Shown here one piece after another: positions 9,900 through 50,995 of a stretch of 64,000 nt of DNA (positions within the stretch are counted from its first letter, which is position 1; each line of letters opens with the position of its first letter). The position numbers and the translations under genes were made by a program. The notes below the pieces were generated by a model. The model saw only the letters and a list, made by a program, of their open reading frames with translations, ran no database searches and was not told the DNA's origin. Origin of the DNA: Eledone cirrhosa (Eukaryota); the NCBI GenBank assembly GCA_964016885.1, contig OZ024741.1, positions 370,512,001 through 370,576,000 of the forward strand, read 5' to 3'.

Positions 9900-10101
9900 A
9901 CTTTGGTAGACCCGAGAATGAGAGTTGGGTGACCTCCATGAGCTTTGCTGGTCACGCTTAGGGATCCAGCAGGATCATTTGGAGACGGTTGCTGCTGAGA
10001 GGACCCGCTTGAAAGAGTGTTTGAGGGCTCTGCCAAACACGACCCTCTCAAGAAGAAGAAGAAGAAGAAGAAGAAGAAGAAGAAGAAGAAGAAGAAGAAG
10101 A
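9900..10101 (+). mobile_element. 3' end of RTE-like LINE with (AAG)n tail
   Basis: Similar to 23735-23910 (GGTAGACC..TCCATGAGCTT.GCTGGTCA..GGGATCCAGC.GGATCA), ends in (AAG)n. Confidence 0.7.
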
Positions 10102-10697
10102 AAGTTTCATTTTCAATTTTCCGTTCACTTCCCAAATGTACTCCACTCACCTGTCAACCAACATATAGCACCCCCACCCCGCCACACTACCAAATTATGG
10201 AGTTGGTGGACTTGGCAGAGGTTGACAATAAAAATTTGATTAATATTGTTGTTTGCCTTCGAAACGGTTTAAAATTGACCGTTGAGAATTCAAGCCTATA
10301 CACAGATCTTTAAGTATATAGTACTGAGTTGAATAATAGTCTTGTTGGTCTTTACTAGTAAAATGTCGTCCATATATATATATATATGTAGATAAATCTA
10401 CCAAAATATATGGTAGTGTCCAATCCGTATGAAGAACTCAATGTAATCCAAATATGAAAAGAGAAGATGCATTCAAAATTTTTCGATGAAAATCATAGGA
10501 AAACAGAGTCAAGATAAATTAATAAAAACAATGAATAAAAACAAAGAACAAGTTCCTTATATTAAAAAATTCATCATTTTACGATATATATGTGTGTTGG
10601 TATGTATATCATATAGATCTATGTAAAAATATTACAAACTATCAGAGGGAATAAACATACCTTCACATATATATGCTATACATATATATATATATAT

Positions 10698-10761
<64 letters not shown>

Positions 10762-10819
10762 AGAATTTTATTTCTCGCACTCGCACAGCTGATACATAAA
10801 TGTGTAGTTAAGAAATTCT

Positions 10820-11025
10820 ATATATTTTCAACCGTTCAACAGATTGGCAGAGGTATACAGTCCTGATGAATGGCGATGGCCCTGAAACATGTTGATTGTT
10901 CCTCAATGCCAGTGTTGAACAAATGGATGACGATTTGTCATCGGCAGAGCACAGCATTAATCGGGCCGTTTGTTTACAAACGAACCGAATGTTATTATTA
11001 ATATTTGATATAACCCATACGTACA
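10820..11025 (+). mobile_element. HHR repeat family B, divergent subfamily (hammerhead 10857-10899)
   Basis: ACAGUC-CUGAUGA-stem II (GGC/GCC)-GAAA, palindrome ACAUGU, U^GAUUGU; downstream GTTTGTTTACAAAC..CCCATACGTACA shared with copies at 38.4-38.75k, 40.2k, 46k and 50.5k. Confidence 0.8.
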
Positions 11026-11072
11026 TATGTATATGTATATATGTGGGTATGTATATATATATATATATATAT

Positions 11073-11745
11073 TAGGGAGGTCCTTAGCAATAGGTAATTT
11101 TCTGAAAGTTAAAATGTTGTTGCTCCCACCCCTTAATCCTCTTCCAATAAACAAACACACGGGTTGTGCAAAATTTCAGTTCAAGCGGAAAACTATTGGA
11201 TGACCCTCAAACGCCTTGAAGTTGGAACATAGTATACCCAACGATTAATTTTGTTCAAAAGTGGTATACTGTTCTCTATCTCGACCATTTTCTTTTTTGT
11301 TCTTTGAGAAATTTATGTGGACACATCCAAGCAACCCCAGCAAATGTTTAAAAACGTTCTGAATCAATTTACCAATAGTTAATTTGAAAAATTCCTGAAA
11401 TAACATGAAAAACTTAAGAAATATTAGGTTTTTTTAATAAAGCACACAACTTCTATAAGAGAAACGCATTTTTACAACAATAATTTCTATAGAATCAAAA
11501 ACATAATGTGAGCACAGAACACTGAATATTGAACATTATTGTTGCATAAGAGAGGATTTAGTGGCAGTTGGGTATGTTTTACAGTTTTCGGTAACGATCT
11601 ATAAAACAAATTGTTTCTCAGTTTCGTCTTTTGTGAGAATGTTATTGTAATCCTGAATGAGTTTCACACCTCTTTCTACAACATTATTCACTAGTCTTCT
11701 CAAGTTTTTCAAGTCCACTTTTGTAACCAGGACCATCCTTCCATG
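11073..11745 (-). mobile_element. DNA transposon relic (probably hAT/hATm-like): transposase C-terminus and one end
   Basis: Translates LVNNVVERGVKLIQDYNNILTKDETEKQFVL, resembling the VNDxAERGVKL transposase motif; putative terminus TAGGGAGGTCC at 11073; superfamily assignment from memory. Confidence 0.55.
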
Positions 11746-11801
11746 TTGAAGGGTCTCTGTCGAGGAAATCGGAGCTGATATATATATACATATATATATC
11801 T

Positions 11802-11938
11802 TTAGTTTATCGACCCCGTAAGGATGAAAGGCAAAGTTAACCTCGGCGGGATTTGAACTCAGATCATAAAGGGCCATAACTCTATGCTGCAAAGCATGGT
11901 GTATGGCGCTCCACCGATAGTGCCAATCAACCGCCCTA
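11802..11938 (-). mobile_element. SINE family 1 (3' part missing)
   Basis: Core, B-box and head on the reverse strand. Confidence 0.85.
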
Positions 11939-12546
11939 GTAAAAGTAGTAATGATGAGAACATTAATAGTAATGTTCTCGGATTTAGGCTCGTACATAAG
12001 AACGGTCGAGACGGTGTGGAGCATGCGTAAACGAGGATATAGTGTACAAAAACAAGTCTGCATATACATGTACACATATACGTGTATGCATGTACACATG
12101 TAAGCGCACGTGCGTTTGCACGTGCGCGCACAAATGCATACATATATGTGTACACACACCTACTTAAAAATAATATGCGTACATATATTTATATATATAT
12201 ACATATATGCATAAACACATATATACAAACTCCCTCTCACACACACACACACAGAGCGAAAGAGAGATCTAAATCCAGACCGCGGTGCTAAGCTGTTTCC
12301 GCTTAAGTGTTCAGCAAGCTTTTTCAATGGCTTTAATTATCCCTATACCCACTGTACATGTCCTCCGCAGACTATTTATGTAGATATAATATATATATAT
12401 CTATATACATATATATATATATGTGTATATATATATATATTATTATTATTATTATATTATTATTATTATTATTATATTTAGGTAGGGTCATATTGTTATA
12501 ATATTGCAAGAACTCACTGTTTGGTTTGGATTGAATTGTTTTCTGT

Positions 12547-12613
<67 letters not shown>

Positions 12614-12751
12614 TAAAATAAAAGATTAAAGTTTAAGCAAAGAATCGCTTAAACTTTAACCTGTTATTTTAATAAATATTTGCTCCACAGTTCTAATATA
12701 TTTGATATCGAGCCCTCTTTGGATTTTAGTCTTCAAATTTATTATTATTAC

Positions 12752-12799
<48 letters not shown>

Positions 12800-13052
12800 A
12801 TAATATGAGGAACACCTGTATTATGTCACTGAGCTACATAATTGTTTCTACTATTGGCACAAGGCCATCAATTATATCAGTGCATTACTGGTACGTTATT
12901 TTATCGACCCCGTAAGGTTGAAAGGCACACAAACGCGCACACGTAAGTCTTAGTGTTTTTGCATCCGTGTGTTTGTGTTGTCTTTTCTTTAACTCTCTCT
13001 ATATACATACAAATGGGTGACCAGCAATAAAATTTCCACTTTCCCTTATATA

Positions 13053-13755
13053 ATTGGATATATGAGAGGGATGAACACAGATATAAGTATACATGTGTTC
13101 CAATTGTAAATGACCAAGTTAGCTAGGTTGAAAAAATACTAATTTAAAACAATATGGTTTGCCTGACTCGATTTAACGTAATAAATCAATAAAAATAACA
13201 AACCTATATCGGGAAAATAGCCTATGATTCCCGGACAGATGTAAATCTGTTACGCAAGGATTATTAACTGAAAGCTATAATTCCTGTGCTCTTCTGCGGG
13301 TATCCAGGAAAATTCGTACCTTTCACCTCAAAGGATCTAAGAAGACTGAACGATGTGCTGGTATAAACGCACATGTCGCAGCGCCTAACACGTCTCATAC
13401 TCATGCCGCTAAAAATAGCAGCCAGGTTTATGAGACTAAAGTTAGCCCTACATACGGAGCCATGAATATCATAGATTGAGTTAGAAACACAAAATAGTCT
13501 TTTACAATTAAATATCTCAAAAAAAGGAATCTTTCCGAGCCGATTGGATATATGAAAGGGCATGAACACAGATATAAGTATACATGTGTTCCAATTGCAA
13601 ATGACCAAGTTAGCTAGGTTGAAAAAATACTAATTTAAAACAATATGGTTTGCCTGACTCGATTTAAAGTAATAAATCAATAAAAATAACAAACCTATAC
13701 CAGCAATAGCCTTTGATACCCGGACAGACCCAAAATCTGTTTCGCAAGAATTATT
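13053..13755 (-). mobile_element. 1.4-mer of a ~490-nt HHR-containing unit (family H) with 13-bp TSD
   Basis: 13053-13263 repeated at ~13543-13755; flanking direct repeat TTTCCCTTATATA at 13040-13052 and 13756-13768; hammerhead fold at 13226-13304. Confidence 0.8.
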
Positions 13756-14042
13756 TTTCCCTTATATACATTTTTCCTATTTTATACAAATCTATCTGTC
13801 TTTTATTTCTTCTCTCTTACCTTTCTTCCGATAAAGGACTAGCGTCCGATATGTTAAGACAGATTTCCATCTATATCAAGTGTTAAACTAATACACCATA
13901 ATTGCATTGTATTGTTCTCCTGTTGTTTTCCTTCGTTGACTTTTAGTCTATATATGGGCATATATATCCATATGTATATCCTTACATATATACATAGATA
14001 CACTCATACACACTTTCATAGATCCGTATAAGTGGGTGTATA

Positions 14043-14140
<98 letters not shown>

Positions 14141-14161
14141 CGTATATATATATATGTATAC

Positions 14162-14194
<33 letters not shown>

Positions 14195-14265
14195 TTTGTA
14201 TATATACATATATATATATATATTTAAATATATATACATACATATATATACACACACACACATCC

Positions 14266-14299
<34 letters not shown>

Positions 14300-14479
14300 C
14301 CATCTAAATATATTTGCTGAACCGTCTTAAGTAGTGTTTCTAGGATTAAATATAATATTAAGGGTGTTCCTGTTATTGTCAAACCATTTTCATATCTTCA
14401 TAATCGAGTTAGAGGTAATGTAAAATCACATTGAGCATAATTATTCGCTAAGCTTTTACATGATATATCAGATTTATGA

Positions 14480-14518
<39 letters not shown>

Positions 14519-14535
14519 TATTGAATATGTATATG

Positions 14536-14566
<31 letters not shown>

Positions 14567-14701
14567 GTATATATATATATACATATTTATATGTAAACCT
14601 AATACATAATATACATGTACATAATACATAATACATAATATACAAATATATATATATATATATATATGAATATACAAACACAGCTATATATAGATATGCA
14701 C

Positions 14702-14833
<132 letters not shown>

Positions 14834-15219
14834 ACATATATATATATATGTGTGTGTGTGTAAGTATGTATAATTTTACCTTATGTAACAGAGTGGGTAT
14901 AAGTGTATTTACATACCGTTTGATAATAATTAAGAAACAATAATATTAGGAAGAAATCTATGGATAATAATCTTTATCAAAATATATTATCATATATGTT
15001 TACATTCAACATTCGTCTACATATGTCTTAATGTATATAAGTATATGTATATAAGGGTGTGTGTATATATATATATATATATATATGTCTTAATGTATAT
15101 AAGTATATGTATATAAGTGTGTGTGTATATATATATGTATGTCTTAATGTATATAAGTATATGTATATAAGTGTGTGTGTATATATATATATATGTATAT
15201 ATATTCATATATATATGAG

Positions 15220-15291
<72 letters not shown>

Positions 15292-15406
15292 TACATGTAT
15301 ATATAAATATACCTCCTTTTCAAAATATTGCTATACTGATCTATTTATCAAGATCTATCTACACCCTGTTACCCTACCTATACACTCATCCACACATATA
15401 CAGAGG

Positions 15407-15440
<34 letters not shown>

Positions 15441-15462
15441 TATATATATATATTACATATGT

Positions 15463-15498
<36 letters not shown>

Positions 15499-15522
15499 TA
15501 TATATATATATATTACATATGT

Positions 15523-15553
<31 letters not shown>

Positions 15554-15798
15554 GTTTATGTGCGTGTGTGTGTGTGTATGTGTATATGTGTCCATGTTAG
15601 TGTGTGTGTAATCAGAGCTTCTGTATGTGCATGATATATATACATATATATATATACATATATATGTATACATATATATGTATACATATATATGTATACA
15701 TGTATATGTATATATATGGAGAGAATGTTTGTGAGCGAAAGAACAATACGTTACGTATAAAGTTTCTGGGTGAGAGGGAGAAAGAGACAGAGAGTGAG

Positions 15799-15846
<48 letters not shown>

Positions 15847-16323
15847 TAGAGAGAGAGAGAGAGAGTGTCAAATACAGAGAGAGGGAGAGAGAGAGAGGGA
15901 GAGAGATATAAATATGATGTATTAACGGCTTCCAAGAACAATGCAGACGGAACACTAATAGGTTCGATGCCTGGAGGCTGACGAACAAACGGAATTATAG
16001 TTACACAGATCGTTAGGTAAAATACCTAGATTATTACTGACACATCTCTATCATACTTTGATTATTCCTTAATTCCATAATTCCAGAGAATGTCAGAAAA
16101 TATGAGTACTATATATATATATATATATGTGTGTGTGCGTGTGTGTTTGTGTGTGTGTGTGTATAATATATATACTTATACATACATAGTAGTGAAAGAT
16201 ATTACATATATATATAATATATAATTGTTTCTACTTTTAGGCACAAGGCCAGCAATTACCCAGTGCATTACTGGTACTTTATTTTATCGACCCCTATATA
16301 TTATATATATATATATCTATATA

Positions 16324-16447
<124 letters not shown>

Positions 16448-16554
16448 ATATATATATATATATATGTAAACATGTGTGTGTGTGTGTGTGTACATATAGC
16501 TGGAGAGATACATACATACACATATATATATACATAAAATACAGATGTATGTAA

Positions 16555-16614
<60 letters not shown>

Positions 16615-16789
16615 CTGTGTGAGTATATATAATGTTTGTGATGACATTGGTGATGAAGGTGGTGGAGGTGTTAGTGATGTTGACTATGGCATAAATAAAT
16701 GCGTTCCGTTAACAGCTCATAAAAAGCCAATATACTAATATAACTCACTTCGATCTGAATAATAAGAATTATAATCTTTCCCAAAATTT

Positions 16790-17661
16790 ACGATCGTAGT
16801 TCAAATGCTGCAGAGGTCATCCATCCGGTGTCGCTAAAATAAAGTACATATGAAATAGATCAACATCTCCCTTCCTCTACATGACTCGCCTTCTGCCTGA
16901 AGCTAGAAACATTATTATTAAGGTTAACTTTGCCTTTCATCCTTACGAGGTCGATAAAATAAAGTACCAGTAACGTACTGGGGTAATTGCTGGCCTTGTG
17001 TCAAAAGTAGAAACAATTATTAAAATAGGGTTCAATTTAAGGGGAGCGGATTGGCAGTATCCGTAGAGCGTCAGACGCCATGCCTTGCAGCATAGTGTTA
17101 TGGCCCTTTACGGTCTAGGTTCAAAACCTGCCGAGGTTAATTTTGCCTTTCATCCTTACGGGGTCGCTAAATAAAGTACCAGTCACGCACTGGGGTAGAT
17201 TTAATCGACTTACCCCTCCCCCAAAATTGATGGCCTTAATTAGCAGAGTCGTTAGAACGTCGGATAGAATGCTTTACGGTATTCGTTCCTGCTCTCTGCT
17301 CTCTGAGTTCAAATCCCACTGAGGTCAACTTTGCCTTTCATCCTTTCGAGGTCGATAGAATAAAGTACCAGTAGTGCCTGGGATAATTGCTGGCCCTGTG
17401 CCTAATGTAGAAACAATTATTATTATTATGGTTCAATTTAAGAGCGGTGGATTGGCAGTATCGGTAGAGTCGGACACCATGCTTTGAAGCATAGAGTTAC
17501 AGCCCTTTACGGTCTGAGTTCAAATCCCACCGAAGTTAACTTTCCCTTTCATCCTTTCGGGGTCGATAAGATAAAGCACCAGTAACGTTCTGAGGTCGAT
17601 TTAATCGACCTTACCCTCCCTCAAATTGCTGGCCTTGTGCCTATATAAGAAACTATTATTA
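16790..17661 (+). mobile_element. Head-to-tail cluster of 4-5 SINE family 1 copies
   Basis: Core repeated at ~16925, ~17140, ~17330 and ~17540, plus a degenerate copy at ~16800. Confidence 0.9.
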
Positions 17662-17794
17662 TGGTTCAATTTTGTAAATTTCAGACTCTTAGATGTTAAA
17701 TGATCTGGATATTCAGTTAGGGAGTAATTACAAACAAGCTGACGAAAATGGGGTGATGCGAAAAGCCGATAACAGCTGATGAAATATGGGATGC

Positions 17795-18903
17795 GATGGC
17801 AAGCTACACGAAAGGTAAATTGCCTGGTTTTTATATGGTCTGCCCTATCAAGTTTATATGAGCATTCATATTGAGTTGTTCGGCACCTTTCTCGAGGAAT
17901 ACGAAAAATTTACCAATAAATGTCAGGGCGCCTGCGGCTTGTCACCCGGAGAGGTAAGTCCATGTTATCCAACAACGTCACCGGGCACTGGACGGACGGG
18001 CCGTTTAAATTGCTCGTGGTCTGATTTGTTCCAGATCTCCTGGTGGAAATGAGGTGAGTCGAGATAGTGAGTAGGGTTGCCACTCTCACCCAGAAATGGG
18101 AGAGGAAAGTTGTTCCTGGAAAGTCGGGCAGATGTGAACGTGTGCATTACGTCCGTCATATATTATCACCTGATCGTCGTGCCTTGACCCGTCCCTGCCT
18201 CACCAAATTGCAGCCCTTGCTCTTCAGTATCTTATGAATGGGACATGTTCCACTAGTGAGGGAGTCTATCAGCTTTCAAAACACTCTACGTGAAGAGCTG
18301 AGCAAGCCTTGACTGATGTTGCGCAACCATGCGCTTAGGCTACGGCATCTGCAGGCATTCCTAAACGATGAACAAGTGTGGGCGTCTTTTGTCTGGAACA
18401 TCTTTAGCATCTCGTTTCTTTGACTGTGTGAAGTGGAGGCCGAGATTGGGCGTCTGGCAGAGGGAATGTCAAGGGCTCCCAGCCCTCTATCAGTATAGAG
18501 GACTAGTGGTGGGCATGTGCGACGATATTCTCGGAGAAATTCTTTGCATCGACGAAATCGAATTAACCAGTCTGTTCCGGAGGACTTTCGGTCCAGAGAC
18601 TATTGACAATTTCCAGAAACCTCTGGCTTGGCAATGATACCGGGGGGCGAACGGCCGGTTTAAGACAAACTCTACAAGCACGGAAGCTGTCAAACGGACC
18701 TTTGCGTGATGCGCACTGAGCGATGAAACCGTTCTGCACGTACTCGTCCTGTGTATGAGCATTGCTGACTTGTGGAGTTTTGTCGAACAGCTATTATTGC
18801 GTGTAGGACGGATCCGGCTATCAACCGATTTCATCGTGAAGATTGCACATCCATCTTCTTTTGGCCGGGGAGGGCATGCAGTTTTCCTCTGTCTAGTGGC
18901 TGT
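17795..18903 (+). pseudogene. Old, internally deleted Tx1-clade ORF2 relic
   Basis: Peptides NHALRLRHLQAFLNDEQVW, LTSLFRRTFGPETIDNFQKPLAWQ and FLEEYEKFT align to the ORF2 at 31205-34634; many stops and frameshifts. Confidence 0.85.
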
Positions 18904-18908
18904 AACTA

Positions 18909-19124
18909 CTAGACAGAATCAATAGAAGTTCGGACACTTTGCTTCACGGCATAGTTACGTCTCTTTACGTTCTGAGTTCAAATCCCGCCGAGGTTAACTT
19001 TGCCTTTCATCCTTAAGGGGTCGATAAAATAAAGTACCAGTAATGCACTGGGGTCGATTTAATCGACTTTCCCCTCTCCCTAAATTACTGGCCTTGTGCC
19101 TATAGTAGAAATCATTAATTATTA
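18909..19124 (+). mobile_element. SINE family 1 (long form)
   Basis: B-box, core, GGGGTCGATTTAATCGAC insert, ATT tail. Confidence 0.9.
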
Positions 19125-19514
19125 TTTCTGTTATACTTCTATTATTTACCAACTCGTGTTCATTTTGTCACTAGCTCCCCCGTCCCACCTCCCCTCCGAC
19201 TGAAACATACATACATGAGAAATATGATTGAACTGTATTAGAAAAGCTAAATATGATATTTTAGTAGTTAACTCCGACAACAACAACAACGACAACCAGT
19301 ATAGTGTATACATGACAAGAGACACGTAATTAAATCTGGTGTTAATGGAAGTAAGGTAAAAATTATCCGGAATCACACGAAAAAACACTGAACACATTAT
19401 TGAGAATATATCTTAAAACAAAGAAAAATACATGAAAATTATATTGGATATGTATCTGCTTCGTTAACCCCTCCCCCTCTCTCTTTATATATATATATAT
19501 ATATATATGTGTGT

Positions 19515-19597
<83 letters not shown>

Positions 19598-19623
19598 CAC
19601 ACACATATACAGACACACACACG

Positions 19624-19789
<166 letters not shown>

Positions 19790-19794
19790 GTAAG

Positions 19795-19915
19795 CAGAAA
19801 TAAGAAAAATAACAAAACAAAAGACTGTGCACGGAAGGAATTTATTTGTATAACGCTTGAAATAGCAGGTGGAGGATTTTAACATTTCGGACGTTAGTCG
19901 TTCATCAGAAGAAAG
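19795..19915 (-). mobile_element. Family D fragment with minimal hammerhead (19877-19912)
   Basis: UCUU-CUGAUGA-AC-GAC-UAAC-GUC-C-GAAAUGUU; a degenerate relative at 13824-13859 (+) keeps stem I UCUU/AAGA. Confidence 0.55.
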
Positions 19916-20035
19916 CATGAGAAATTAAAGAAGAAATAGAAAGATTGAGGAGATGGGCAGGGCGGAAACGGAAATAATTTTTTTTTATAGAAAAATAACA
20001 GGTTTATTCATGTTACCAAACAGACTGTAATATAA

Positions 20036-25482: not shown

Positions 25483-28400
25483 CTACAGAACAATGTAGAG
25501 AGAAGGCCCATTTACACGAGCCATTCTCGCTTCTTTCACCCACCTTTCATAAAACTGTCTGGGGCCAAGCACTTCTCTCTCCATCCTGATCCTTCTTCCG
25601 AAGTAGTATCGGAAGAAGTAAACCAGGTGTTGGCCGGAGAGAAAGTCACCCGACCTCAGACCTTTCAGGCGCGTCCACCACACAACCTCTTTCATCATGG
25701 CTATTACGCACAGAAAGACCGCCCCTGCTTCATTTCTGAAGGGAGGAGGCGGCTTGATGTTCACCACAGACTCGGCGGCCAATCGAATCGGCGCCACACG
25801 CGACAGCAGTCGTTCGACGTAGCCCCACAGATCGGCAACGCCCGGGCAGTGTACTAGTGCGTGCGCAACGGTTTCCTCGTCGCGCACGCATCTGGGACAG
25901 ATCTTTTTCGCGGGATCCCTGACCGGGCGCCCGTGTCTGTAGAGCTTTTCTCGAACGGGCAGAGCCCCCCGGTAGCACTGCCAAGCTAGGGTCCTCTGGA
26001 AGTTGTCCATGGGTCCCGGGCCGAAAGTTCTACCGAACAGGCTGGCCAGTTCGTCCTCCTCCATGCCTAGCGACTCTCCAAGGGTGTCGTCGCCCCTGCT
26101 AGCCACCAGCCCTCTATAGAATGTCGAGGTGGATTCTCCACTGATAGTCGGGTCCGCTTGCCAGAGAGCCGTGAGTGCCTGGGCACACTCGGTGTGCCAG
26201 TTGCCCAGTTTTCTCGGTCTTTGCTTCACCCAGGATTGCAGCTCGGTGAGCGAGACGAGTTGTGGGAAGGCTCGCCTCACAAACGGGGCCCACACCGGCT
26301 GACCGGTGAGGAATACCTGTAGATGCCGTAGCCTCAATGCGTGCCTACGCATCAACAGCCACGGCATACCCAGCCTTCCTTTCGAAGGGTGCTGACAGCA
26401 GATGGACCTCCTCACCATGGGAGGCCGCTTCTTCCAGAGGAACTGGAAGAGCATGCGCTCCATGATGGTGAGCGTTTCCTTGGGGCAAGGCACGACGGTC
26501 AGGCGGTAGTAGATGACGGACGCTATGTAAGCGTTCGTCACCTCCGCCCGACCTTTCAGTGATAGTTTGCACTTGGCCCACTTCTGGGTCAGCACAAACA
26601 CCCTGCTCGTCACCTCACCCCAATTCTTCTCCACCTGGAGATCCGGTCCGAACCAGACGCCGAGCAGCTTCACCGGGCCCTCCGTCCACCGCCCGACGAC
26701 ACCGTCTAGCGGCATCGGTTTGCCCCTCCACGTTCCGAGTTGCAAACCGACTGACTTGTCCCGGTTCAGCCTAGCCCCCGTCAGCCTTTCGTATTTCTCC
26801 AGTAGGGTGGCGATCGCCCCGATTTCTGAGGCGTCCGCCACCATTACTGTTACGTCGTCGGCATAGGCCGAGACCGCTTTGTGCAATCCCGGTTCCAGGG
26901 GTATGCCCCGCAGCAATTCGAACTTCCGCAGCAGTGGCTCGAGAGCCAATACGTACATAAGGGAGGAGAGGGGCACCCCTGCCTGATGGACCGGGTGATT
27001 TGAAACGGCTCCGAGAGGTAGCCGTTTACTTTAACCCTAGAGCAGACGTTGCCACTGTGCATGGCAGAAATCCAGCCCCTGAAAACGGGTCCGAAGGCCG
27101 CCACCGCTAGCACCGCATTCAGGTAACCATGGTCGACCCTATCGAACACCTTTGATTGATCCAAGTTGATCAGGGCCCCACCAAAGCCGGGTTCGTTCCC
27201 AACCCTCTCTACGATGTATCGCATGAGGTGGAGGTTGTCGTGAATGGATCTGGACGGGATAGCGCATGTCTGCGCGTCTCCCACCAAACCACCCACCACA
27301 AACGCCAACCTCTTCGCCAACACCTTGGCCAAAATCTGTAACTCTGCATTCAGCAGAGTTATGGGCCTAAAGTTACTTAAGTCGTCCCCCTTGCTCTCGT
27401 CCTTCCTCACTAGCGTGACTACGCCCTTGGTCACAGAACAGGGAATTCTCCCGTTCTGTTGCCAGTTGCAATAGACAGCCTCGAGGAGTTCGGAGAACGA
27501 GACCGGCATAGCTAAATAAAGTTCGTATGGTAGACCATCGAGACCCGGAGATTTGCGTCTGCTGCATTGGCTGAGCGCTTCACCGATTTCAGTGGCTGTG
27601 ATTGGCCTTTCGCAGCAATCCGCTTCACCGCTCGAAAGACGCGGTAGACCGTCGAGGTGTGGACCGAAGTCCACATCCACGTCCGGCCCCCCGGCCCCTC
27701 CGAACAGTCGAGCAAAGTGCCTTTGAAAGGCCTCGCACATCCGCTCAGGTTCAAGGATCACCCGTCCATCCTGGTCTCGCAAAGACCGAATGGTGGATTT
27801 AATCCCACTCTTGGCTTCTGTCACGCGGGCCCAGCTAACAGCTTTGGTCCCCTCGTTTCCTAAAGCACGTATTTTACTTCGGACAACGCAGCCTTCGTGC
27901 TTCGCGTCAAAGAACTGGCTCAACGCCGTTCTCGACGCTAACACTCTGGCCACGTCTCCGCTCCTAATCGCCTCTTCTAGTTTATCTGTTAACTCCCTTT
28001 CCTTCCTATTTCTATTCGCCGCTAGTTCCTTACTGTAACCTATCGAACTTACTTTAATCTATCTCTTTAGAGATACCCACCACCTGCTGTTGACGATCGC
28101 TCCCGTCAACCGCATCTTAACTAAGCTACTAATCCGGTTCCTGTAAGCTTCCTTTGCCGGCAAGGACAAGTTCATCTTCCAGTAACCGGGACCCTGTCTA
28201 TGCGTTCTATCAAGGTTGACCACGCAGGTCACTAATTTGTGATCTGAATAGCCAACCATGAGCAATTCTGGACAACTAAATACGTCCCTATCCTTACTCC
28301 TAACCAAAAACCTATCTAGGTACGATCTAGATTGACCACTGAGGTTTGCCCAGGTCCAGGTTGGCACAGTTGGAAAATCTAGTCGAAATCTATCGACCAG

Positions 28401-28910
28401 GTCGAATCGATGGAGTAACCCCTTGAGGCTGCTACACCCCCCTCTATCGGGACATGCCACTGCATAGTCCCAACGCGCATCTAGGATTCCATTCCAGTCC
28501 CCCACTAAAAGCAGGGAACGCGACGTTCCTAGAAAAGTCTCCAGACGCTGGAAGAAGTCGGCTCTTTCAGCCCCGAAGGGGGCATAAAGACCGACCAGTC
28601 TGAAAGCCCCGCCTTCACCGCCTCCGACGTCCAGCACCAGTAATCGACCCCCCGGGTCCGAGTGAACAATCTGTACTTCGAGAGCCAAACGTTTATCCAG
28701 CAGTACGGCAATCCCACCCCCGCCTCCGGGTTGACAGAGAGATGCGTGCATCTGAAAGTCATCGAAGGCGGGAGCCAGCTGTCGCACGCTGCTGATCCGA
28801 CTCTCGCAAACAACCATCACATCTATACTTCGTGACCTGAGGTCACTTAGAAGCTTTGCTTGCTTCCAAGCTGAGCCCAGGCCACGCGCATTCAAACAGC
28901 CAACTCTCAA
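25483..28910 (-). pseudogene. ORF2 (APE-RT-CCHC), disrupted
   Basis: GDWN/YLDR/SDH endonuclease motifs, YADD, CPRC..H..HC; nonsense GAG>TAG at ~28059 and 1-nt deletion at ~26970. Confidence 0.95.
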
Positions 28911-28915
28911 TAGAT

Positions 28916-30750
28916 CTATTTTGGTGTTGAAAGTGAAGAAAGAAAAGCACCTATCTCTCCGGGTTGTGTAATTTCCATGGGGTCGGGTGTGTTGGGTGGA
29001 GGGATGTTTTGTGGTGGTGTGGGGGTATCCGAGTGTGGTGGGGTTGGGGTATTTGGAGTTGTGTCAGGGAGAGGGGAGGTTATGGGGAAATCTTTCAAGA
29101 GGACGCGATTTAACGGTTTTAAACAGGGGGGCTCACGTCCTGTTTAAATTGTTCTTTTAAGGAACGATAAAGGTCCAGAGGGACCTTTATCATTTTTAAA
29201 TGGGTAAAGTTCTCTGTTGAGATAAAGTTTGGCCCTTCGGTCTGCACCAAAGGGCTATTGTTTATTAATTTAAACAGTTTTTTGTTTTCTTTATTTATAT
29301 ATGTGTATTGCAAAGTCTTTTTTTGTGATGCTGTCAATGTTTCGAAGAGGGGAGGCGCAGATTTATTTTTGTTTGTCGAGGGTGGGGTGTTTTTGATTGG
29401 AGTTGGTGTTTGTGTGTGGGTTATTTGTTGTTGTGGTGTGCTGGGTGTGTGCTTTCGTTTTTTTCTTTTAACTTGTCTGAAGGCTTCTCCTCCTTCTTCT
29501 TCAGAAGTTGGGGGAAACTCTTCAGCGCTAGGTGGGAGGGACGTGGTGTCTGGTTGTTTCTTTTTGCGGGAGGGGTAGATTTGTTGCTGTATTTTTTATT
29601 ATTAGTTTGGAATGTGTTTTGTGGTGGTGGTGGTGATGTTTGTGTCGTGCTTGTGGTTGGTGATGGTGGTGGTGATGTTTGTGTTGTGGTTGGTAATGGT
29701 GGTGGTGATTTTTGTGTCGTGCTTGTGTTTGGTGCTGGTGGTGGTGATGTTTGTGTTGTGCTTGTGGTTGGTGGTGTCTGTATTTTGTTTGCTGTGTGTG
29801 GTATTAGTGTATTTTTGGAGGTGGGTGGTGTTGGTGTACTGTTTGTGGTGGGTGTGGGCAATAGTCCTTTTTGGGGGATACGATTCGGGCAGTTAGCCTT
29901 AACGTGTCCCCTTTCCATGCGTGAATAGCATGCTCGTCTTCTCCCCTCTACAATTATATATATTGGGGTAAGGTCATCCAGCCAGATGCGATCCGGGATT
30001 TGCGCTATTCTTTCGGGCCTCATTTGGACTAGTAGGTCGAGGCCCATTCCCAGGAACGCATCTCCAGATGCCTTCCCCATTGACAGCACTGTGTCCTCGC
30101 CCATGTCTATGAAGCCAGCAATAGCCCACCAGAAGTCCATTGTGGGCAGCATTGTCTGTATTTTGACTCTCTGAGTTCTTCTACCCATGTAGGTGGGATA
30201 GAAACTGTAGAGTGGGCTTAGGGAAAGCCTCTGTGCTGTTTCCTTGTCTTTTGTTAAAACCGAAATGCTGCCATAGAGTCGGTCCTTTCGTATGAAGAGA
30301 ATATTCTTCATATAGTCTTTTAGGACCAACTCTATCTCCATTTGGCTGTGCTGTGCTGGCTTTCTCGTGTGGTTTAGAATTGTTCTAAACAGAACAGTGT
30401 TTTCTAGTCTCGTTTTCTTGAATTCTGGGGGGGAATTAATGGAAAACATTCCGTTCTCCCCCCAAGATTATGTGCTTTTTTGCTTCTGCCAATTTTTCTC
30501 TGGCGGCAGTCAAGTCAATAGGTGTATATATTATAGATTTTTTTGTTGTCTGGGCGAAAGTTGCCTTGTTGTTTTTTGTATTCTTATTTTCTGTTTGTTT
30601 GTTTTCCGTTTCTAATTTTCCGTAACATTTGTTTTTTTCATTTTCCTTGTTTGTTTCGTTGTCTAGTTTTGTTGTATCCATTTTTTGTTCTTCAGACTTG
30701 GGGGGCGTGGCAGAGCTAATGGCATACATGTCTGCCATCTTTCCCGCCAT
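28916..30750 (-). pseudogene. ORF1 (gag-like), frameshifted
   Basis: Four ORF fragments match the intact ORF1 of copy 2; zinc knuckle mutated (CYSR); 12-nt deletion (STTx segment missing). Confidence 0.9.
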
Positions 30751-31204
30751 GCGTCCAAGAAAGAAGTTTTACAGAAAAATAGTTATTTATTTTACCCCCT
30801 AAAAAGGGGGTAAATGTAAAAATGTTTCCCTAAATAACAGGGGTAAGTGTTCCAAATGTGTTGCACTGAAAACATTCACTGGTTCTTACTATAGTAAGGG
30901 TAAATTCCGATAGAATAGCAGAGCCGATGTGAAGCGTGTCTCACTCTATCAAGATAGATAGATAGATAGATAAATTTATATTTATTTTCCACGAGGGCAC
31001 AAAAGAAGGGGACATTTACACAGTGGGGGAGTTTACATAAATCGAGTAAAGAAAAAAGGAATAACAATAATAATATAACAATAAAAAGTCCTCAAAAGGG
31101 AGGGGGCGTGTTGGGGATTGCACATACCCCCGAAAAGTGTGCAACTCTTTTCGCGGGGGAAGCCCAGAGAGGAGGCGCTCCCCCTTTCCTCTTCACTTCT
31201 TCAC

Positions 31205-34200
31205 CTACAGAACAATGTAGAGAGAAGGCCCATTTACACGGGCCATTCTCGCTTCTTTCACCCACCTTTCATAAAACTGTCTGGGACCAAGCACTTCTCT
31301 CTCCATCCTGATTCTTCTTCCGAAGTGGTATCGGAAGAAGTAAACCAGGTGATGGCCGGAGAGAAAGTCACCCGACCTCAGACCTTTCAGGCGCGTCCAC
31401 CACACAACCTCTTTCATCATGGCTATTACGCACAGAAAGACCGCCTCTGCTTCATTTCTGAAGGGATGAGGTGGCTTGATGTTCACCACAGACTCGGCGG
31501 TTAATCGAATCGGCGCCACACGCGACAGCAGTCGTTCGACGTAGCCCCACAGATCGGCAACGCCCGGGCAGTGTACCAGTGCATGCGCAACGGTTTCCTC
31601 GTCGCGCACGCATCTGGGACAGATCTTTTTCGCGGGATCCCTGCCCGGGCGCCCGTGTCTGTAGAGCTTTTCTCGAACGGGCAGAGCCCCCCGGTAACAC
31701 TGCCAGGCTGGGGACCTCTGGAAGTTGTCCATGGGTCCCGGGCCGAAAGTTCTAACGAACAGGCTGGCCAGTTCGTCCTCCTCCATGCCTAGCGACTCTC
31801 CAAGGGTGTGGTCGCCCCTGCTAGCCACCAACCCTCTATAGAATGTCGAGGTGGATTCTCCACTGACAGTCGGGTCCGCTTGCCAGATAGCCTTGAGCGC
31901 CTGGGCACACTCGGTGTGCCAGTTGCCCAGTTTTCTCGGTCTTTGCTTCACCCAGGATTGCAGTTCGGTGAGCGAGACGAGCTGTGGGAAGGCTCGCCTC
32001 ACAAACGGGGCCCACACCAGCTGACCGTTGAGGAATACCTGTAGATGCCGTAGCCTCAAAGCGTGCCTACGCATCAACAGCCACGGCATACCCAGCCCTC
32101 CTTTCGAAGGGTGCTGGCAGCAGATGGATCTCCTCACCATGGGAGGCCGCTTCTTCCAGAGGAACTGGAAGAGCATGCGTTCCATGATGGTGAGCTTTTC
32201 CTTGGGGCAAGGCACGACGGTCAGGAGGTAGTAGATGACGGACGCTATGTAAGCGTTCGTCACCTCCGCCCGACCTTTCAGTGATAGTTTGCACTTGGCC
32301 CACTTCTGGGTCAGCGCAAACACCCTGCTCGTCACCTCGCCCCAATTCTTCTCCACCTGGAGGTCCGGTCCGAACCAGACCCCGAGCAGCTTCACCGGGC
32401 CCTCCGTCCACCGCTCGACGACACCGTCTAACGGCATCGGTTTGCCCCTCCACGTTCCGAGTTGCAAACCGACTGACTTGTCCTGGTTCAGCTTAGCCCC
32501 CGTCAGCCTTTCGTATTCCTCCAGTAGGGTGGCGATCGCCCCGATTTCCGAGGCGTCCGCCACCATTACTGTTACGTCGTCGGCATAGGCCGAGACCGCT
32601 TTGTGCAATCCCGGTTCCAGGGGTATGCCCCGCAGCAACTCCAACTTCCGCAGCAGTGGCTCGAGAGTCAATACGTACAGAAGGGAGGAGAGGGGGCACC
32701 CCTGTCTGATGGATCGGGTGATTTGAAACGGCTCCGAGAGGTAGCCGTTTACTTTAATCCTAGAGTAGATGTTGCCACTGTGCATGGCAGAAATCCAGCC
32801 CCTGAAAACGGGTCCGAAGCCCGCCGCCGCTAGCACCGCATCCAGGTAACCATGGTCGACCCTATCGAACGCCTTAGATTGATCCAAGTTGATCAGGGCC
32901 CCACCAAAGCCGGGTTCGTAGCCAACCCTCTCTATGATGTATCGCATGAGGTGGAGGTTGTCGTGAATGGACCTGGACGGGATAGCGCATGTCTGCGCGT
33001 CTCCCACCAAACCACCCACCACAAGCGCCAACCTCTTCGCCAACACCTTGGCCAAAATCTGTAACTCTGCATTCAGCAGAGTTATGGGCCTAAAGTTACT
33101 TAAGTCGTCCCCCTTGCTCTCGTCCTTCCTCACTAGCGTGACCACGCCCTTGGTCACAGTACAGGGAATTCTCCCGTTCTGTTGCCAGTTGCAATAGACA
33201 GCCTCGAGGAGTTCGGAGAACAAGACCGGCATAGCTAAATAAAGTTCGTATGGTAGACCATCGAGACCCGGGGATTTGCGTCTGCTGCATTGGCTGAGCG
33301 CTTCCCCGATTTCAGTGGCTGTGATTGGCCTTTCGCAGCACTCCGCTTCGCCGCTCGAAAGACGCGGTAGACCGTCGAGGTATGGACCGAAGTCCACATC
33401 CCCGTCCGGCCCCCCGCCACCTCCGAACAGTCGAGCAAAGTGCCTTTGAAAGGTCTCGCACATTCGCTCAGGTTCAAGGATCACCCGTCCATCCTGGCCT
33501 CGCAAAGACCGAATGGTGGATTTAATCCCACTCTTGGCTTCTGTCACGCGGGCCCAGCTAACAGCTTTGGTCCCCTCGTTTCCTAAAGCACGTATTTTAC
33601 TTCGGACAACGCAGCCTTCGTGCTTCGCGTCAAAGAACTGGCTCAATGCCGTTCTCGTCGCTAACACTCTGGCTACGTCTCCGCTCCTAATCGCCTCTTC
33701 TAGTTTATCTGTTAACTCCCTTTCCCTCCTATTTCTATTCGCCGCTAGTTCCTTACTGTAACCTATCGAACTTACTCTAATCTCTCTCTTTAGAGATATC
33801 CACCACCTACTGTTGACGATCGCTCCCGTCAACCGCATCTTAACTAAGCTACTAATCCGGTTTCTGTAATCTTTCTTTGTCGGTAAGGACAAGTTCATCT
33901 TCCAGTAACCGGGACCCTGTCTATGCGTTCTATCAAGGTTGACCACGCAGGTCACTAATTTGTGATCTGAATAGCCAACCATGATCAGTTCTGGACAACT
34001 AAATACGTCCCTATCCTTACTCCTAACCAAAAACCTATCTAGGTACGATCTAGATTGTCCACTGCGGTTTGCCCAGGTCCAGGTTGGCGCAGTTGGACAA
34101 TCTAGTCGAAATCTATCGACCAGGTCGAATCGATCGAGAAACCCCTTGAGGCTGCTACACCCCCCTCTATCGGGACATGCCCCTGCATAGTCCCAACGCG

Positions 34201-34634
34201 CATCTAGGATTCCATTCCAGTCCCCCACTAAAAGCAGGGAACGCGACGTTCCTAGAAAAGTCTCCAGACGTTGGAAGAAGTCGGCTCTTTCCGCCCCGAA
34301 GGGAGCATAAAGACCGACCAGTCTGAAAGCCCCGCCTTCACCGCCTCCGACGTCCAGCACCAGTAATCGACCCCCCGGGTCCGAGTGAACAATCTGTACG
34401 TCGAGAGTCAGACGTTTATCCAGCAGTACGGCAACTCCCCCCCCCGCCTCCGGGTTGACAGAGAGATGCGTGCATCTCAAAGTCATCGAAGGCGGGCGCC
34501 AGCTGTCTCACGCTGCTGATCCGACTCTCGCAAACAACCATCACATCTATACTTTGTGACCTGAGGTCACTTAGAAGCTTTGCTTGCTTCCAAGCTGAGC
34601 CCAGGCCACGCGCGTTCAAACAGCCAACTCTCAA
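31205..34634 (-). CDS. ORF2: AP endonuclease + reverse transcriptase + C-terminal CCHC finger (~1142 aa if one G is removed from the run at 34437-34445)
   Basis: VGCLNARG, GDWN, SYLDR, SDH; KSPGLDG, FRPITLLN, DQSKAFD, RQGCPLS, YADD; CPRC-x8-H-x4-C. Confidence 0.93.
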
Positions 34635-34639
34635 TTGAT

Positions 34640-36475
34640 CTATTTTGGTGTTGAAAGTGAAGAAAGAAAAGCACTTACCTCTCCGGGTTGCGTAATTTCC
34701 ATGGCATCAGGTGTGATGGGTGGAGGGATGTTTTGTGGTGGTGTGGGGGTACACGTGTGTGGTGGGGTTGGGGTATTTGGAGTTGTGTCAGGGAGAGGGG
34801 CGGTTATGGGGAAATCTTTCAAGAGGACGCGATTCAACGGTTTTAAACAGGGGGGGCTCACGTCCCGTCTAAATTGTTCTTTTAAGGAACGATAAAGGTC
34901 CAGAGGGAACTTTATCATTTTTAAATGGGTGAAGTTCTCTGTTGAGATAAAGTTTGGCCCTTCGGTCTGCACCATAGGGTTATTGTTTATTAATTTAACC
35001 AGTTTTTTGTTTTCTTTATTTATATATGTGTATTGCAACGTCTTTTTTTGTGATGCTGTCAATGTTTCGGAGAGGGGAGGCGCAGATTTATTTTTGTTTG
35101 TTGAGGGTGGGGTGTTTTTGATTGGAGTTGGTGTTTGTGTGTGGGTTATTTGTGGTGTGCTGGGTGTGTGTTTTCTTTTTTTTCTTTTAACTTGTCTGAA
35201 GGCTTCTCCTCCTTCTTCTTCAGAAGTTGGGGGAAACTCTTCAGCGCTAGGTGGGAGGGACGTGTTGTGTGGTTGTTTTTTTTTTGCGGGAGGGGTAGAT
35301 TTGCTACTGTTTTTTTTATTATTTGTTTGGAATGGGTTTTGTGGTGGTGGTGGTGGTAATGTTTGTGTCGTGCTTGTGGTTGGTGATGGTGGTGGTGATG
35401 TTTGTGCTGTGGTTGGTGGTGGTGATTTTTGTGTCGTGCTTGTGTTTGGTGCTGGTGGTGGTGATGTTTGTGTTGTGTTTGTGGTTGGTGGTGTCTGTAT
35501 TTTGTTTGCTGTGTGTGGCATTAGTGTATTTTTGGAGGTGGGTGGTGCTGGTGTACTGTTTGTGGTGGGTGTGGGCAATAGTCCTTTTTGGGGGATACGT
35601 TTCGGGCAGTTAGCCTTAACGTGTCCCCTTTCCATGCATAAATAGCATGCTGGTCTTCTCCCCTCTACAATTATGTCTATTGGGGTAAGGTCATCCAGCC
35701 AGATGCGATCCGGGATTTGTGCTATTCTTTCGGGCCTCATTTGGACTAGTATGTCGAGGCCCATTCCCAGGAACGCATCTCCAGTTGCCTTCCCCATTGA
35801 CAGCATAGTGTCTTCGCCCATATCAATGAAGCCAGCAATAGCCCACCAGAAGTCCATTGTGGGCAGCATTGTTTTTACTTTTACTCTTTGTGTTCTTCTA
35901 CCCATGTAGGAGGGATAGAAGCTATATGTTGTCGACGAGAGTGGGCTTAGGGAAAGCTTCTCCGCCGTTTCTTTGTCTCTTGTTAGGACCGAAATGCTGC
36001 CATAGAGTCGGTCCTTTCGTATGAAGAGAATATTCTTCATATAGTCTTTTAGGACTAACTCTATTTCCATTTGGCTGGGCTGTGCTGGCTTTCTTGTCTG
36101 GTTCAGTATAGTTCTGTATAGAACTGTGTTTTCTGCTCTGGCTTTCTTGAATTCTGGGGGGGAGTTAATGGAAAACATTCCGTTCTCCCCCAAAACAATG
36201 TGTTTCTTTGCTTCGGCCAGTTTTTCTCTGGCGGCAGTTAGGTCAATTGGTGTGTATGTAATGGATTGTTTTGTTTTCTGGGCGAAAGTTGCCCTGTCGT
36301 TATTTGTATTATTTTCTGTTTGTTTGTTTTCTGTTTGCTCATTTTCCTTAACATTTGTTTTTTCATTTTGTTTGTTTGTTTCAATGTCTAATTTTGTTGT
36401 AATTATTTTTTGTTCTTCAGACTTGGGGGGCGTGGCAGAGCTAATGGCAGACATGTCTGCCATCTTTTCCGCCAT
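34640..36475 (-). CDS. ORF1 gag-like nucleic-acid-binding protein with CCHC zinc knuckle and Pro/Thr-rich repeats (~611 aa)
   Basis: CYLCMERGHVKANC = CX2CX4HX4C; ATG at 36475 matches the ATG of copy 1 at 30750; TT(Q/K)TSPPP-like repeats. Confidence 0.92.
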   Translation of the reverse strand: MAEKMADMSAISSATPPKSEEQKIITTKLDIETNKQNEKTNVKENEQTENKQTENNTNNDRATFAQKTKQSITYTPIDLTAAREKLAEAKKHIVLGENGMFSINSPPEFKKARAENTVLYRTILNQTRKPAQPSQMEIELVLKDYMKNILFIRKDRLYGSISVLTRDKETAEKLSLSPLSSTTYSFYPSYMGRRTQRVKVKTMLPTMDFWWAIAGFIDMGEDTMLSMGKATGDAFLGMGLDILVQMRPERIAQIPDRIWLDDLTPIDIIVEGRRPACYLCMERGHVKANCPKRIPQKGLLPTPTTNSTPAPPTSKNTLMPHTANKIQTPPTTNTTQTSPPPAPNTSTTQKSPPPTTAQTSPPPSPTTSTTQTLPPPPPQNPFQTNNKKNSSKSTPPAKKKQPHNTSLPPSAEEFPPTSEEEGGEAFRQVKRKKRKHTPSTPQITHTQTPTPIKNTPPSTNKNKSAPPLSETLTASQKKTLQYTYINKENKKLVKLINNNPMVQTEGPNFISTENFTHLKMIKFPLDLYRSLKEQFRRDVSPPCLKPLNRVLLKDFPITAPLPDTTPNTPTPPHTCTPTPPQNIPPPITPDAMEITQPGEVSAFLSSLSTPK

Positions 36476-36781
36476 GCTGCCAAGAAAGAAATTTTTCGGC
36501 AAAAATAGATATTTATTTTACCCCCTAAAAAGGGGGTAAATGCAAAAATGTTTCCCTAAATAACAGGGGTTAGTGTTCCAAATGTGTTGCACTAAAAAAT
36601 TTATCCGGTACTTACAATAGTAAGGGTAAATCCCGATGGAATAGCGGAGCCGATGCGAAGCGTGTCTTACTCTATCAAGATAGATAGATAGATATGTGTG
36701 CCTGTGTGTGGTTGTGTGCCTGTGTATAGGGGTGAGGAATATCATATATATGAGGAATTTACACACATATATATATATAAG

Positions 36782-46082: not shown

Positions 46083-46875
46083 TACATATTTATATATATA
46101 TATACGTACATACATATATGTATACAGACGTAGAGTAGTATGTATATATATATACATACATGCACACATATATATATGTACGTATGGATTTACCGAACAT
46201 TTATTATAATGCTCGGTTTGTTTGTAAACAAACAAACATCCCGAATTAAGCCGTACAGTGTTTAGCAACCATCGTTGCCCTTTTGTTCAACACTGACAAA
46301 GGAACGATGTACTAGTTTCAAGCTTATTAGCTATTGTCAGCACCGTATACCTTCCTGCCAGATGATTGAACGTCTGAAAGTATATACTTACCTTATGCAT
46401 ATTGACGGTTGAACAGCCTAATTTGCATATCGAGTGGGTTAATCGGCCGGGCGCACCGAAAACGATAAATGGAAAAAATGAAACGAAATTTCATTTATCA
46501 CTCTTAGTACGGCTGTTACTTAAATATAAGTATGTATACGTACATACATGTATGTATACAGACGTACAGTAGTATGTATATATATATACATACATGCACC
46601 CATATATATATGTACGTATGGATTTACCGAACATTTATTATAATGCTCGGTTTGTTTGTAAACAAACAAATATCTCGAATTAAGCCGTATAGTGTTTAGC
46701 AACCATCGTTGCCCTTTTGTTCAACACTGACAAAGGAACGATATACTAGTTTCAAGCTTATTAGCTATCGTCAGCAAGGTATACCTTCCTGCCAGATGAT
46801 TGAACGTCTGAAAGTATATACTTTCCTTATGTATATTAACGGCTGAGCAGCCTAATTTTCATATCAAATGAGTTA
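46075..46875 (-). mobile_element. Tandem family B HHR repeat, period 434 nt
   Basis: GATTTACCGA at 46187 and 46621; hammerheads at 46304-46346 (core CUGACAA, mutated) and 46738-46780. Confidence 0.85.
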
Positions 46876-49458: not shown

Positions 49459-49498
<40 letters not shown>

Positions 49499-49717
49499 CA
49501 AAAAGTTATCGCATTATATAGCTGAATACAATAAATGTAATCTGAGTTTTTCGAATATTAATAATAATATTCGATTCATTTGCAATTATGCAAACAGCGA
49601 CTTTTAAGCCATATCAGTAGAATGAGCCCCTGATCAGCCAGCCTGCGAATATGCAAATCAGGCCGATCGGTCACTGTATATTTTAGAAAATATCATATAT
49701 TTTCACCAGCTCTGACA

Positions 49718-49800
49718 GTTGGCAGGTGAACAGCAAACTGCACTGATGAAGGGTAATAACCCAGAAACAGTAGTGTCTGCAGTTCTGTTTACATGCCAAC
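49718..49800 (+). ncRNA. Full type-I hammerhead ribozyme with extended, bulged stem I
   Basis: AACUGCA-CUGAUGA-A-GGGU-AAUA-ACCC-A-GAAA-CA-GUAG-UG-UC^UGCAGUU; stem I extends via GUUGGCA.GUGAACAG / CUGUUUAC.UGCCAAC. Confidence 0.85.
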
Positions 49801-49919
49801 ACAAGAGCAAGAATAATGATATGGCTTAAAAGAGGTTGTTTGCATAACTGCAAACGAATCGAATATTATTATTAATGTTCGAAACACTCAGATTACATAT
49901 ATATGTACATGTGTGTATA

Positions 49920-50029
<110 letters not shown>

Positions 50030-50199
50030 GAGAGATAATTTAATATATCTACTAACATAAGCGCACAGATGTACGCTAATGCCAGCAAATACACAGGTTA
50101 TGTCATAGTACCTAGGTGGTTCAATGCAGGAGGATGCAGAACAATAATATAAAAGACGTAAAATAAGAAAATTTAAAAAAAAAATTTTCTTATTTTACG

Positions 50200-50510: not shown

Positions 50511-50511
<1 letters not shown>

Positions 50512-50972
50512 AATGGAAAAAATGAAACGAAATTTCATTTCTCACTCTTAGTACGGCTGTTACTTAAATATAAGTATTATACGTACATACATATATGTAT
50601 ACAGACGTTCAGTAGTATGTATATATATATATATATATATACATACAGGCACACATATATATATGTACGTATGGATTCACCGAACATTTATTATAATGCT
50701 CGGTATGTTTGTAAACAAACAACCCGAATTAAGCCGTACAGTGTCTAACAACCATCGTTGCTCATTTGTTCAACCCTGACAAAGGAATGCTGTACTAGTT
50801 TCAAGCTTATTAGCTATCGTCAGCAACGTATAACTTCCTGCCAGATGATTGAACGTCTGAAAGTATATACTTTCCTTATGCATATTAACGGCTGAGCAGC
50901 CTAATTTGCATATCGAGTGAGTTAATCGGCCGGGTATAGAAAACGATAAACGGAAAAAATGAAACGAAATTT
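50511..50972 (-). mobile_element. Family B monomer with terminal redundancy; hammerhead 50787-50829
   Basis: AAA(T/C)GGAAAAAATGAAACGAAATTT at both 50511 and 50948 (437-nt period). Confidence 0.85.
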
Positions 50973-50995
50973 ATATTTATATTTATATATATATA

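Follow-up and report, generated by a model that had tools for sequence, protein, structure and literature searches.

A hammerhead ribozyme in an aged, two-armed retrozyme copy with Penelope-type insertion marks in Eledone cirrhosa

A stretch of 64,000 nt of the Eledone cirrhosa genome (contig OZ024741.1; hereafter the window) contains what its sequence indicates to be a real hammerhead ribozyme, carried by an unremarkable, old member of a retrozyme family that shows Penelope-type marks of insertion. We consider it highly probable that the element represents one insertion of a 439-nt hammerhead retrozyme, in which two truncated arms were placed head-to-head in a (TA)n target, likely by a trans-acting Penelope-like (PLE) reverse transcriptase (RT)/endonuclease that primed from both ends of the break at two fixed sites in the RNA, often on an RNA with a 5' end that was likely cut by the ribozyme. 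The family to which the copy belongs is called family A below, and a second family in the window is called family B.

The hammerhead and the two arms in the window

The ribozyme is a type I hammerhead at 49718..49800 (+), in which CUGAUGA (49743-49749), GAAA (49764-49767) and GUC (49775-49777) can be read from the sequence, with a predicted cut after 49777. Stem I comprises 7 bp (49736-49742 with 49778-49784), followed by a 2-nt bulge (49734-49735) and 15 further pairs, one G.A mismatch among these. Stem II is formed by GGGU and ACCC (49751-49754 paired with 49759-49762), and stem III has 3 bp, capped by a 4-nt loop. The original prediction, made from the letters of this DNA, had described an intact CUGAUGA/GAAA core, a GUC site, a 7-bp stem I, a 2-nt bulge and about 15 more pairs, all of which are present base for base. 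A core of CUGANGA, GAAA and NUH thus sits on three helices with stem I open, while the pair 10.1-11.1 that closes stem II is replaced in family A by an A.A mismatch, here A 49750 opposite A 49763. This makes the ribozyme less canonical, not less of a hammerhead, because a U.U variant that is able to cut has been described (PMC7229834). The mismatch had also been suspected as a defect of this particular copy. This was rejected, as the two positions are A in 102/105 and 101/104 family A copies.

Private changes do occur at two positions of the window copy, one in loop III at 49770 and one in the stem I bulge at 49734, which is C where 101/103 copies have U. Its earlier description as the best-formed hammerhead in the window is thus only partly borne out. 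Stem-loop III (49767..49776, +) is a 10-nt self-complementary stretch in family A, weakened here by the change at 49770; its self-duplex is predicted at -8.8 kcal/mol for family A versus -6.2 kcal/mol for the window copy. The 146-nt hammerhead region folds better than shuffled sequences (z = -5.8). Rfam returned no match at the gathering score, and none of its 52 weak matches at E up to 10 was a hammerhead. In a nearest-neighbour model, which ignores tertiary energy, the gap between the active fold and the more stable minimum is 6.2 kcal/mol (median of 39 copies), compared to 1.6 kcal/mol in the window copy, and the predicted minimum fold pairs loop III with the core. As loop III is self-complementary, a double hammerhead would be expected to free the core, and the predicted self-inhibition of the monomer suggests that cleavage would occur more readily in a double hammerhead or in a fold assisted by protein.

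The hammerhead had been assigned to an element with inverted ends of about 80 bp. An inverted repeat is indeed present (49531-49619 and 49814-49902; 89 nt, 90%), but it consists of two insertion arms, and their junction varies from copy to copy. With q1 as the base right after the predicted cut, mapping to the 439-nt monomer places the inverted arm (49497..49629, -; 89% identity) from q41 to about q180, where it stops at an outer, "tailed" site; the ribozyme core is absent from it. The forward arm (49630..49900, +; 87% identity to the monomer) runs from q293 via the ribozyme to about q142, the inner end site. About 2 nt are common to both arms at the head-to-head junction (49630..49631). The left arm reaches about 35 nt further out than the start at 49535 that had been proposed, and carries an optional "tail" of about 40 nt (49497..49534, -) found on the inverted arm only. 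The inner limit of the inverted repeat is due to a 14-nt deletion in the right arm near 49815.

Comparison with family B revealed two shared regions in the forward arm: an octamer-like motif (49651..49658, +), which may be part of a promoter, and two short hairpins (49826..49882, +) just inside both end sites, which form a candidate binding site of the copying enzyme. The element is flanked by (TA)n tracts on the left (49460..49497) and right (49900..50030), in AT-rich surroundings with many such tracts. No target duplication could be read, and microsatellite flanks would hide one both here and at other family A loci. The insertion seen in the window is truncated and old, and nothing in it hints at a host function.

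Family A across the genome and its relatives

Genome-wide searches were carried out over the 3.0-Gb assembly. The exact core pattern was found in at least 2,272 places (reversed control: 0), and a DNA search of the genome with the element gave 3,813 first-look candidates, 40 of which were scored. The 439-nt majority unit rests on a set of 89 loci, those that came first in the list for one contig. Pairs of cores lie 430-444 nt from each other, which points to a 439-nt unit in partial tandems with one type I hammerhead per unit. The copies (median identity to the majority unit 92%) are 5'-truncated, head-to-tail and often more than one unit long, and continuous alignment of a single arm extends to 789 nt at most. 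The unit lacks frames for RT or endonuclease, and no ORF with RT and GIY-YIG, as in autonomous PLEs, was found in either the unit or the 64-kb window. When 60 of 86 motif-picked copies were aligned, 95% of pair cells held standard pairs; four stem I pairs varied widely in this alignment, on one side only (both-side changes in 4 cells), and pairing was kept via G-U changes.

Non-LTR retrozymes have a short, non-coding tandem unit with one type I hammerhead each and are expressed as unit-length RNA, both linear and circular; where they have a target-site duplication, it is large. By its unit, ribozyme and tandem habit we regard family A as a new animal family of this class. Like animal non-LTR retrozymes (PMC7229834; 10.64898/2026.07.22.740005), it has an AT-rich unit of a few hundred nucleotides, and head-to-tail copies that number in the thousands per genome and co-occur with PLEs. 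Its unit is slightly longer than the 170-400 nt quoted for invertebrates and has A.A instead of U.U; moreover, its arrays are shorter than two units, and half of its insertions are head-to-head with PLE-type tails. In the axolotl ribozyme HHR_Amex2, which has U.U at this stem II position, cleavage is weak for the single ribozyme (22% in 1 h) and stronger for the dimer (PMC7229834). A link between retrozymes and PLEs was proposed by Cervera and de la Pena in 2020 (PMC7229834) and received phylogenetic support from Li, Clavereau and Pollet in 2026 (10.64898/2026.07.22.740005). The way in which retrozymes move is proposed, and not shown, in these two papers.

Family A also resembles endonuclease-positive PLEs and their terminal repeats (pLTRs), which show 5' truncation, partial tandems, an inverted 5' copy, an optional 30-40-nt tail at one end, (TA)n targets and a hammerhead near the end (PMC8557442, PMC3846280, PMC11167929). 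In contrast to these elements, it has no ORF, and its long stem I and 3-bp stem III set it apart from minimal PLE hammerheads. With the latter it shares an unpaired base after position 9 that is followed by a G-C pair, and a palindromic stem III, but it has an extra A before GAAA too, and its stem I is long and its stem II short (PMC4209133).

Closer to home, copies of family B occur in the window at 50511-50977 (-), for example at 50823, and also near 46774, 40278 and 10863. Family B likewise has a tandem unit (429 nt, compared to 439 nt in family A), head-to-head arms, a long stem I and a mismatch where stem II begins, as well as the octamer region and 3' hairpins in common with family A, and differs by its U.U mismatch, its GUA site and its shorter, palindromic stem III of 2 bp. 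Its best genome matches are 96-97% alike, compared to the median of 92% in family A. Short flank motifs had been reported as common to the two families, and their local alignment is above chance, with scores of 41 (500 shuffles: 22±3, maximum 38) and 38 (19.7±2.8, maximum 29). The hammerhead regions align no better than chance (22 versus 18.8±2.7); the resemblance lies in the 3' hairpins and the octamer region, and from these the two families are likely of common ancestry, as had been supposed. The proposed contrast between full and minimal hammerhead versions did not survive, since the predicted fold of family B has a long stem I too, and family B is itself a tandem retrozyme.

A SINE-like element repeatedly interrupts family A at one AT-rich site, q108-117 (window position ~49867-49876), for example in loci L053, L076 and L088. 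Among 159 loci, 46 inserts were found, of which 44 are SINE-like by their motifs; 41 resume at q108, and their 5' ends vary.

Arm layout, end sites and PLE enzymes

Two sets of loci were pooled into 159, after removal of 12 duplicates. Head-to-head arms were found at 83 of these loci, and tail-to-tail arms at none; the first set of 89 loci accounted for 47 head-to-head junctions, again with none tail-to-tail. The 3' ends in these 89 loci fall largely into two clusters, at q134-154 (65/139) and q166-191 (49/139), and (TA)4 lies within 30 nt of 87/139 of them. The fixed end sites of the two arms are about 40 nt apart. Both outer ends could be classed at 47 of the 83 two-armed loci, the other 36 having an end outside both classes: 41 pairs had one short and one tailed end, 3 had two short and 3 had two tailed ends (Fisher P = 3e-7; all P values given here overstate independence, as family A copies are related). 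This one-short, one-tailed rule constrains models of PLE integration. BLAST hits of the two arms overlapped by 1-8 nt at 27/47 head-to-head junctions, and the junction positions in the two arms showed no relation to each other. The idea of a hidden short second arm at every solo copy was rejected, as one was detected by score in only 2/72. A few A-rich 5' joints of solo copies, indistinguishable from background, may be second arms.

An inverted 5' copy, partial tandems, a 30-40-nt tail that is often at one end, and microsatellite targets are known marks of PLEs (PMC8557442, PMC3846280). Family A insertions carry an inverted, 5'-truncated copy, partial tandems, a tail of this length at one end and a microsatellite target, and because of these marks we infer that a PLE acted as their copying enzyme. 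In work with a purified PLE protein (PMC11167929), both strands of AT-rich DNA were cut and then extended, and copying began at two positions in the RNA, which delimit the tail.

PLE ORFs are abundant in this genome: of 19,663 candidates, 151 matches were scored, several with frames of 796 aa, and RVT_1 is present. An autonomous PLE of this genome ends next to (TA)n at either of two sites separated by about 38 nt, and one locus (L133) has one of each at its two ends. Loci L184-L190 represent a young autonomous PLE with a 796-aa open stretch containing RT, CxxC and GIY-YIG-like motifs, a further upstream frame, a microsatellite-like 3' region of more than 1 kb, and the two end sites at a spacing of about 38 nt. 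A canonical hammerhead core was absent from the end of this PLE, where a variant core is possible.

In a screen of 248 loci, 218 of them family A, three joined a family A 5' end directly to a piece of PLE ORF, two of them head-to-head (L046, L071) and one in sense (L039). These fusions involve two different PLE families. Family A was not found as a PLE terminal repeat in 30 GIY-YIG loci and 33 loci from the PLE search, a small sample of 10,000-20,000 first-look candidates.

Genomic ends at the cut site and models of insertion

For counts of ends at the cut site and of changes in the core, loci were picked by a spacer pattern, and not by the core itself. The 5'-end set contained 82 loci, with 3 dropped where a SINE hid the 5' end and 1 adjusted manually. 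Among arms that reach the upstream ribozyme, 9/23 stop at q1-q10, within 10 nt of the cut, where 1.5 were expected; this was the strongest excess among the 257 ten-nt windows scanned (uncorrected P = 2.6e-5). The 50 nt that follow hold a single stop, compared to 5.0 expected. Similarly, genome-wide searches with patterns in which the three bases preceding a chosen position had to differ from the family gave 3 boundaries at q431 (9 nt upstream of the cut), 8 at q437 (3 nt upstream), 39 at q1 (the cut), 20 at q4 and 6 at q19. Word frequency does not explain the step at the cut, because the corresponding words occur 93, 83, 89, 82 and 50 times in family A loci; AT-rich flanks are estimated to favour the q1 and q4 patterns about 1.4-fold. 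Inspection of 30 q1 loci by eye classified 20 as true ends and 10 as other events (5 switches across the stem I mirror, 1 deletion, 3 single-base indels and 1 duplication); 6 of the 20 true ends are near-symmetric junctions, which fold-back could also produce. The cut after 49777 foreseen in the original prediction thus falls where genomic 5' ends of family A pile up, and so many copies ending at a predicted self-cutting site suggest that the ribozyme has cut in living cells, and point to cleaved linear RNA as one real template of family A. At the first passage via the ribozyme, 6/48 inverted arms stop at the cut (1.8 expected, P = 0.011), three of them with long overlaps. As so few stop, most templates appear to have been uncut or cleanly religated at this site.

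The core itself is conserved. Its 11 positions carry 19 substitutions, compared to 54 expected by base, 50 without CpG and 48 by trinucleotide (P about 5e-5 or less), for which the simplest reading would be that copies with an intact core were those re-copied. U at position 1.7 is present in 109/109 copies and one loop II A in 106/107, U1.7-A being a tertiary contact of hammerheads, while the two As of the A.A mismatch vary about as much as other As. With its conserved core and the pile-up of ends at the cut, the family A ribozyme looks functional. The role of the hammerhead in Penelope-type elements has been stated as unclear (PMC8557442), and for the anole PLE, RNA ends at the ribozyme site are reported to have been undetected and cleavage to have been dispensable in vitro (PMC11167929), whereas genomic ends pile up at this site in family A. 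In the literature searched, mostly outside subscription journals, no paper was found to describe a pile-up of genomic 5' ends where a retrozyme cuts. The pile-up and the core conservation are the new contribution here, and make a family-level case for in vivo cleavage and selection of the A.A variant that is worth following. Counting genomic copy ends along with core conservation is a cheap test of in vivo cleavage, and can be used on any genome.

Taken as a sequence of steps, the insertion would start from transcripts longer than one unit, in a fraction of which the upstream hammerhead would cut, with the downstream one mostly uncut or religated. A PLE protein would then bind the 3' hairpins and cut (TA)n on both strands, one DNA end starting near q142 and the other near q182. 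Finally, each of the two cDNAs would terminate either prematurely or on reaching the 5' end of the RNA, and short microhomology would join them. A more far-reaching reading, which we put forward as tentative, is that the genome preserves a fossil record of an A.A hammerhead that cut in vivo under selection for catalysis, and set the 5' ends of linear templates for a PLE enzyme priming two ends of one break at two RNA sites, with loop III switching the ribozyme off in the monomer and on in the dimer.

An alternative that is compatible with this preferred explanation keeps the same family and enzyme, and takes as template a closed RNA circle that is copied repeatedly, in which case the pile-up would be due to circles that were cut again or to pauses at the ribozyme. 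Coral, mussel and axolotl retrozymes occur mainly as circles (PMC7229834), most family A arms read cleanly via one cut site (152 unselected read-through junctions, with no inserted base), and the unit folds well as a circle (-169 versus -99±5 kcal/mol for shuffles). We nevertheless find this alternative doubtful, as the continuously aligned arms all fall short of two units, stops are more frequent at the second passage (9/23) than at the first (6/48), and they lie at the inner end of stem I instead of the outer edge, which a polymerase would meet first. The same 152 junctions speak against template jumping across the cut with added bases, which had been hinted at by 2/30 selected loci and was rejected.

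The remaining alternatives concern the origin of the arms. The inverted arm could stem from self-priming or fold-back, followed by endonuclease resolution of one intermediate, instead of two primings. Both self-priming on an antisense template (PMC3846280) and a tail from endonuclease resolution (PMC8557442) have been proposed for PLEs; staggered resolution would likewise yield one tailed end, and some junctions are near-palindromic. This is nonetheless unlikely: the window's inverted arm holds a tail that the forward arm lacks, and hence cannot be a copy of it, the junction positions of the arms are unrelated, fusions with pieces of PLE ORF exist, and the purified PLE protein cuts and extends both strands from two internal start sites (PMC11167929). 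Less likely still is that the repeat is a pLTR from truncated copies of an autonomous PLE. All structural marks are of PLE type, and retrozymes resemble pLTRs in Xenopus (10.64898/2026.07.22.740005), but family A copies that extend past the tail enter the next unit and not an ORF, and none of the 30 GIY-YIG loci or 33 PLE-search loci described above, few as they are among the candidates, had a family A terminal repeat. Finally, the 89-nt inverted repeat and the TA flanks would fit a miniature DNA transposon with terminal inverted repeats of about 80 bp and a captured hammerhead. The copy survey refutes this, as it found no fixed inverted ends on an element of fixed length: the arms are unequal, their junction differs in nearly every copy, the inverted arm is absent from about half of the loci, and direct tandems of the same sequence occur.

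Several minor observations were made on these ends and on the rest of the window. In four read-through copies (L283, L294, L279 and L288), a short duplication or single-base indels fall precisely on the cut, and unselected copies show no enrichment of such changes. A second, broader cluster of 5' ends lies at q340-390, 50-100 nt upstream of the cut and downstream of octamer-like repeats (9 ends versus 2.9 expected, P = 0.003), and is a weak lead to a possible transcription start. The arrangement may parallel a newt snRNA-type promoter. A splice acceptor at q382 was rejected, since the ends there are preceded by sequences that have nothing in common. Retrozymes have been described as seemingly without promoters (PMC7761336). 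In addition, the window contains a LINE in two tandem copies (25483-36517, -), with ORF1 and an ORF2 encoding endonuclease, RT and zf-RVT, one copy having an open stretch of 1,100 aa. More hammerhead-like cores, of other families, lie at 4896, 5896, 7374, 19908, 24259, 45434, 45908 and 50354, and several of them have the unpaired base after position 9 that is typical of PLE ends.
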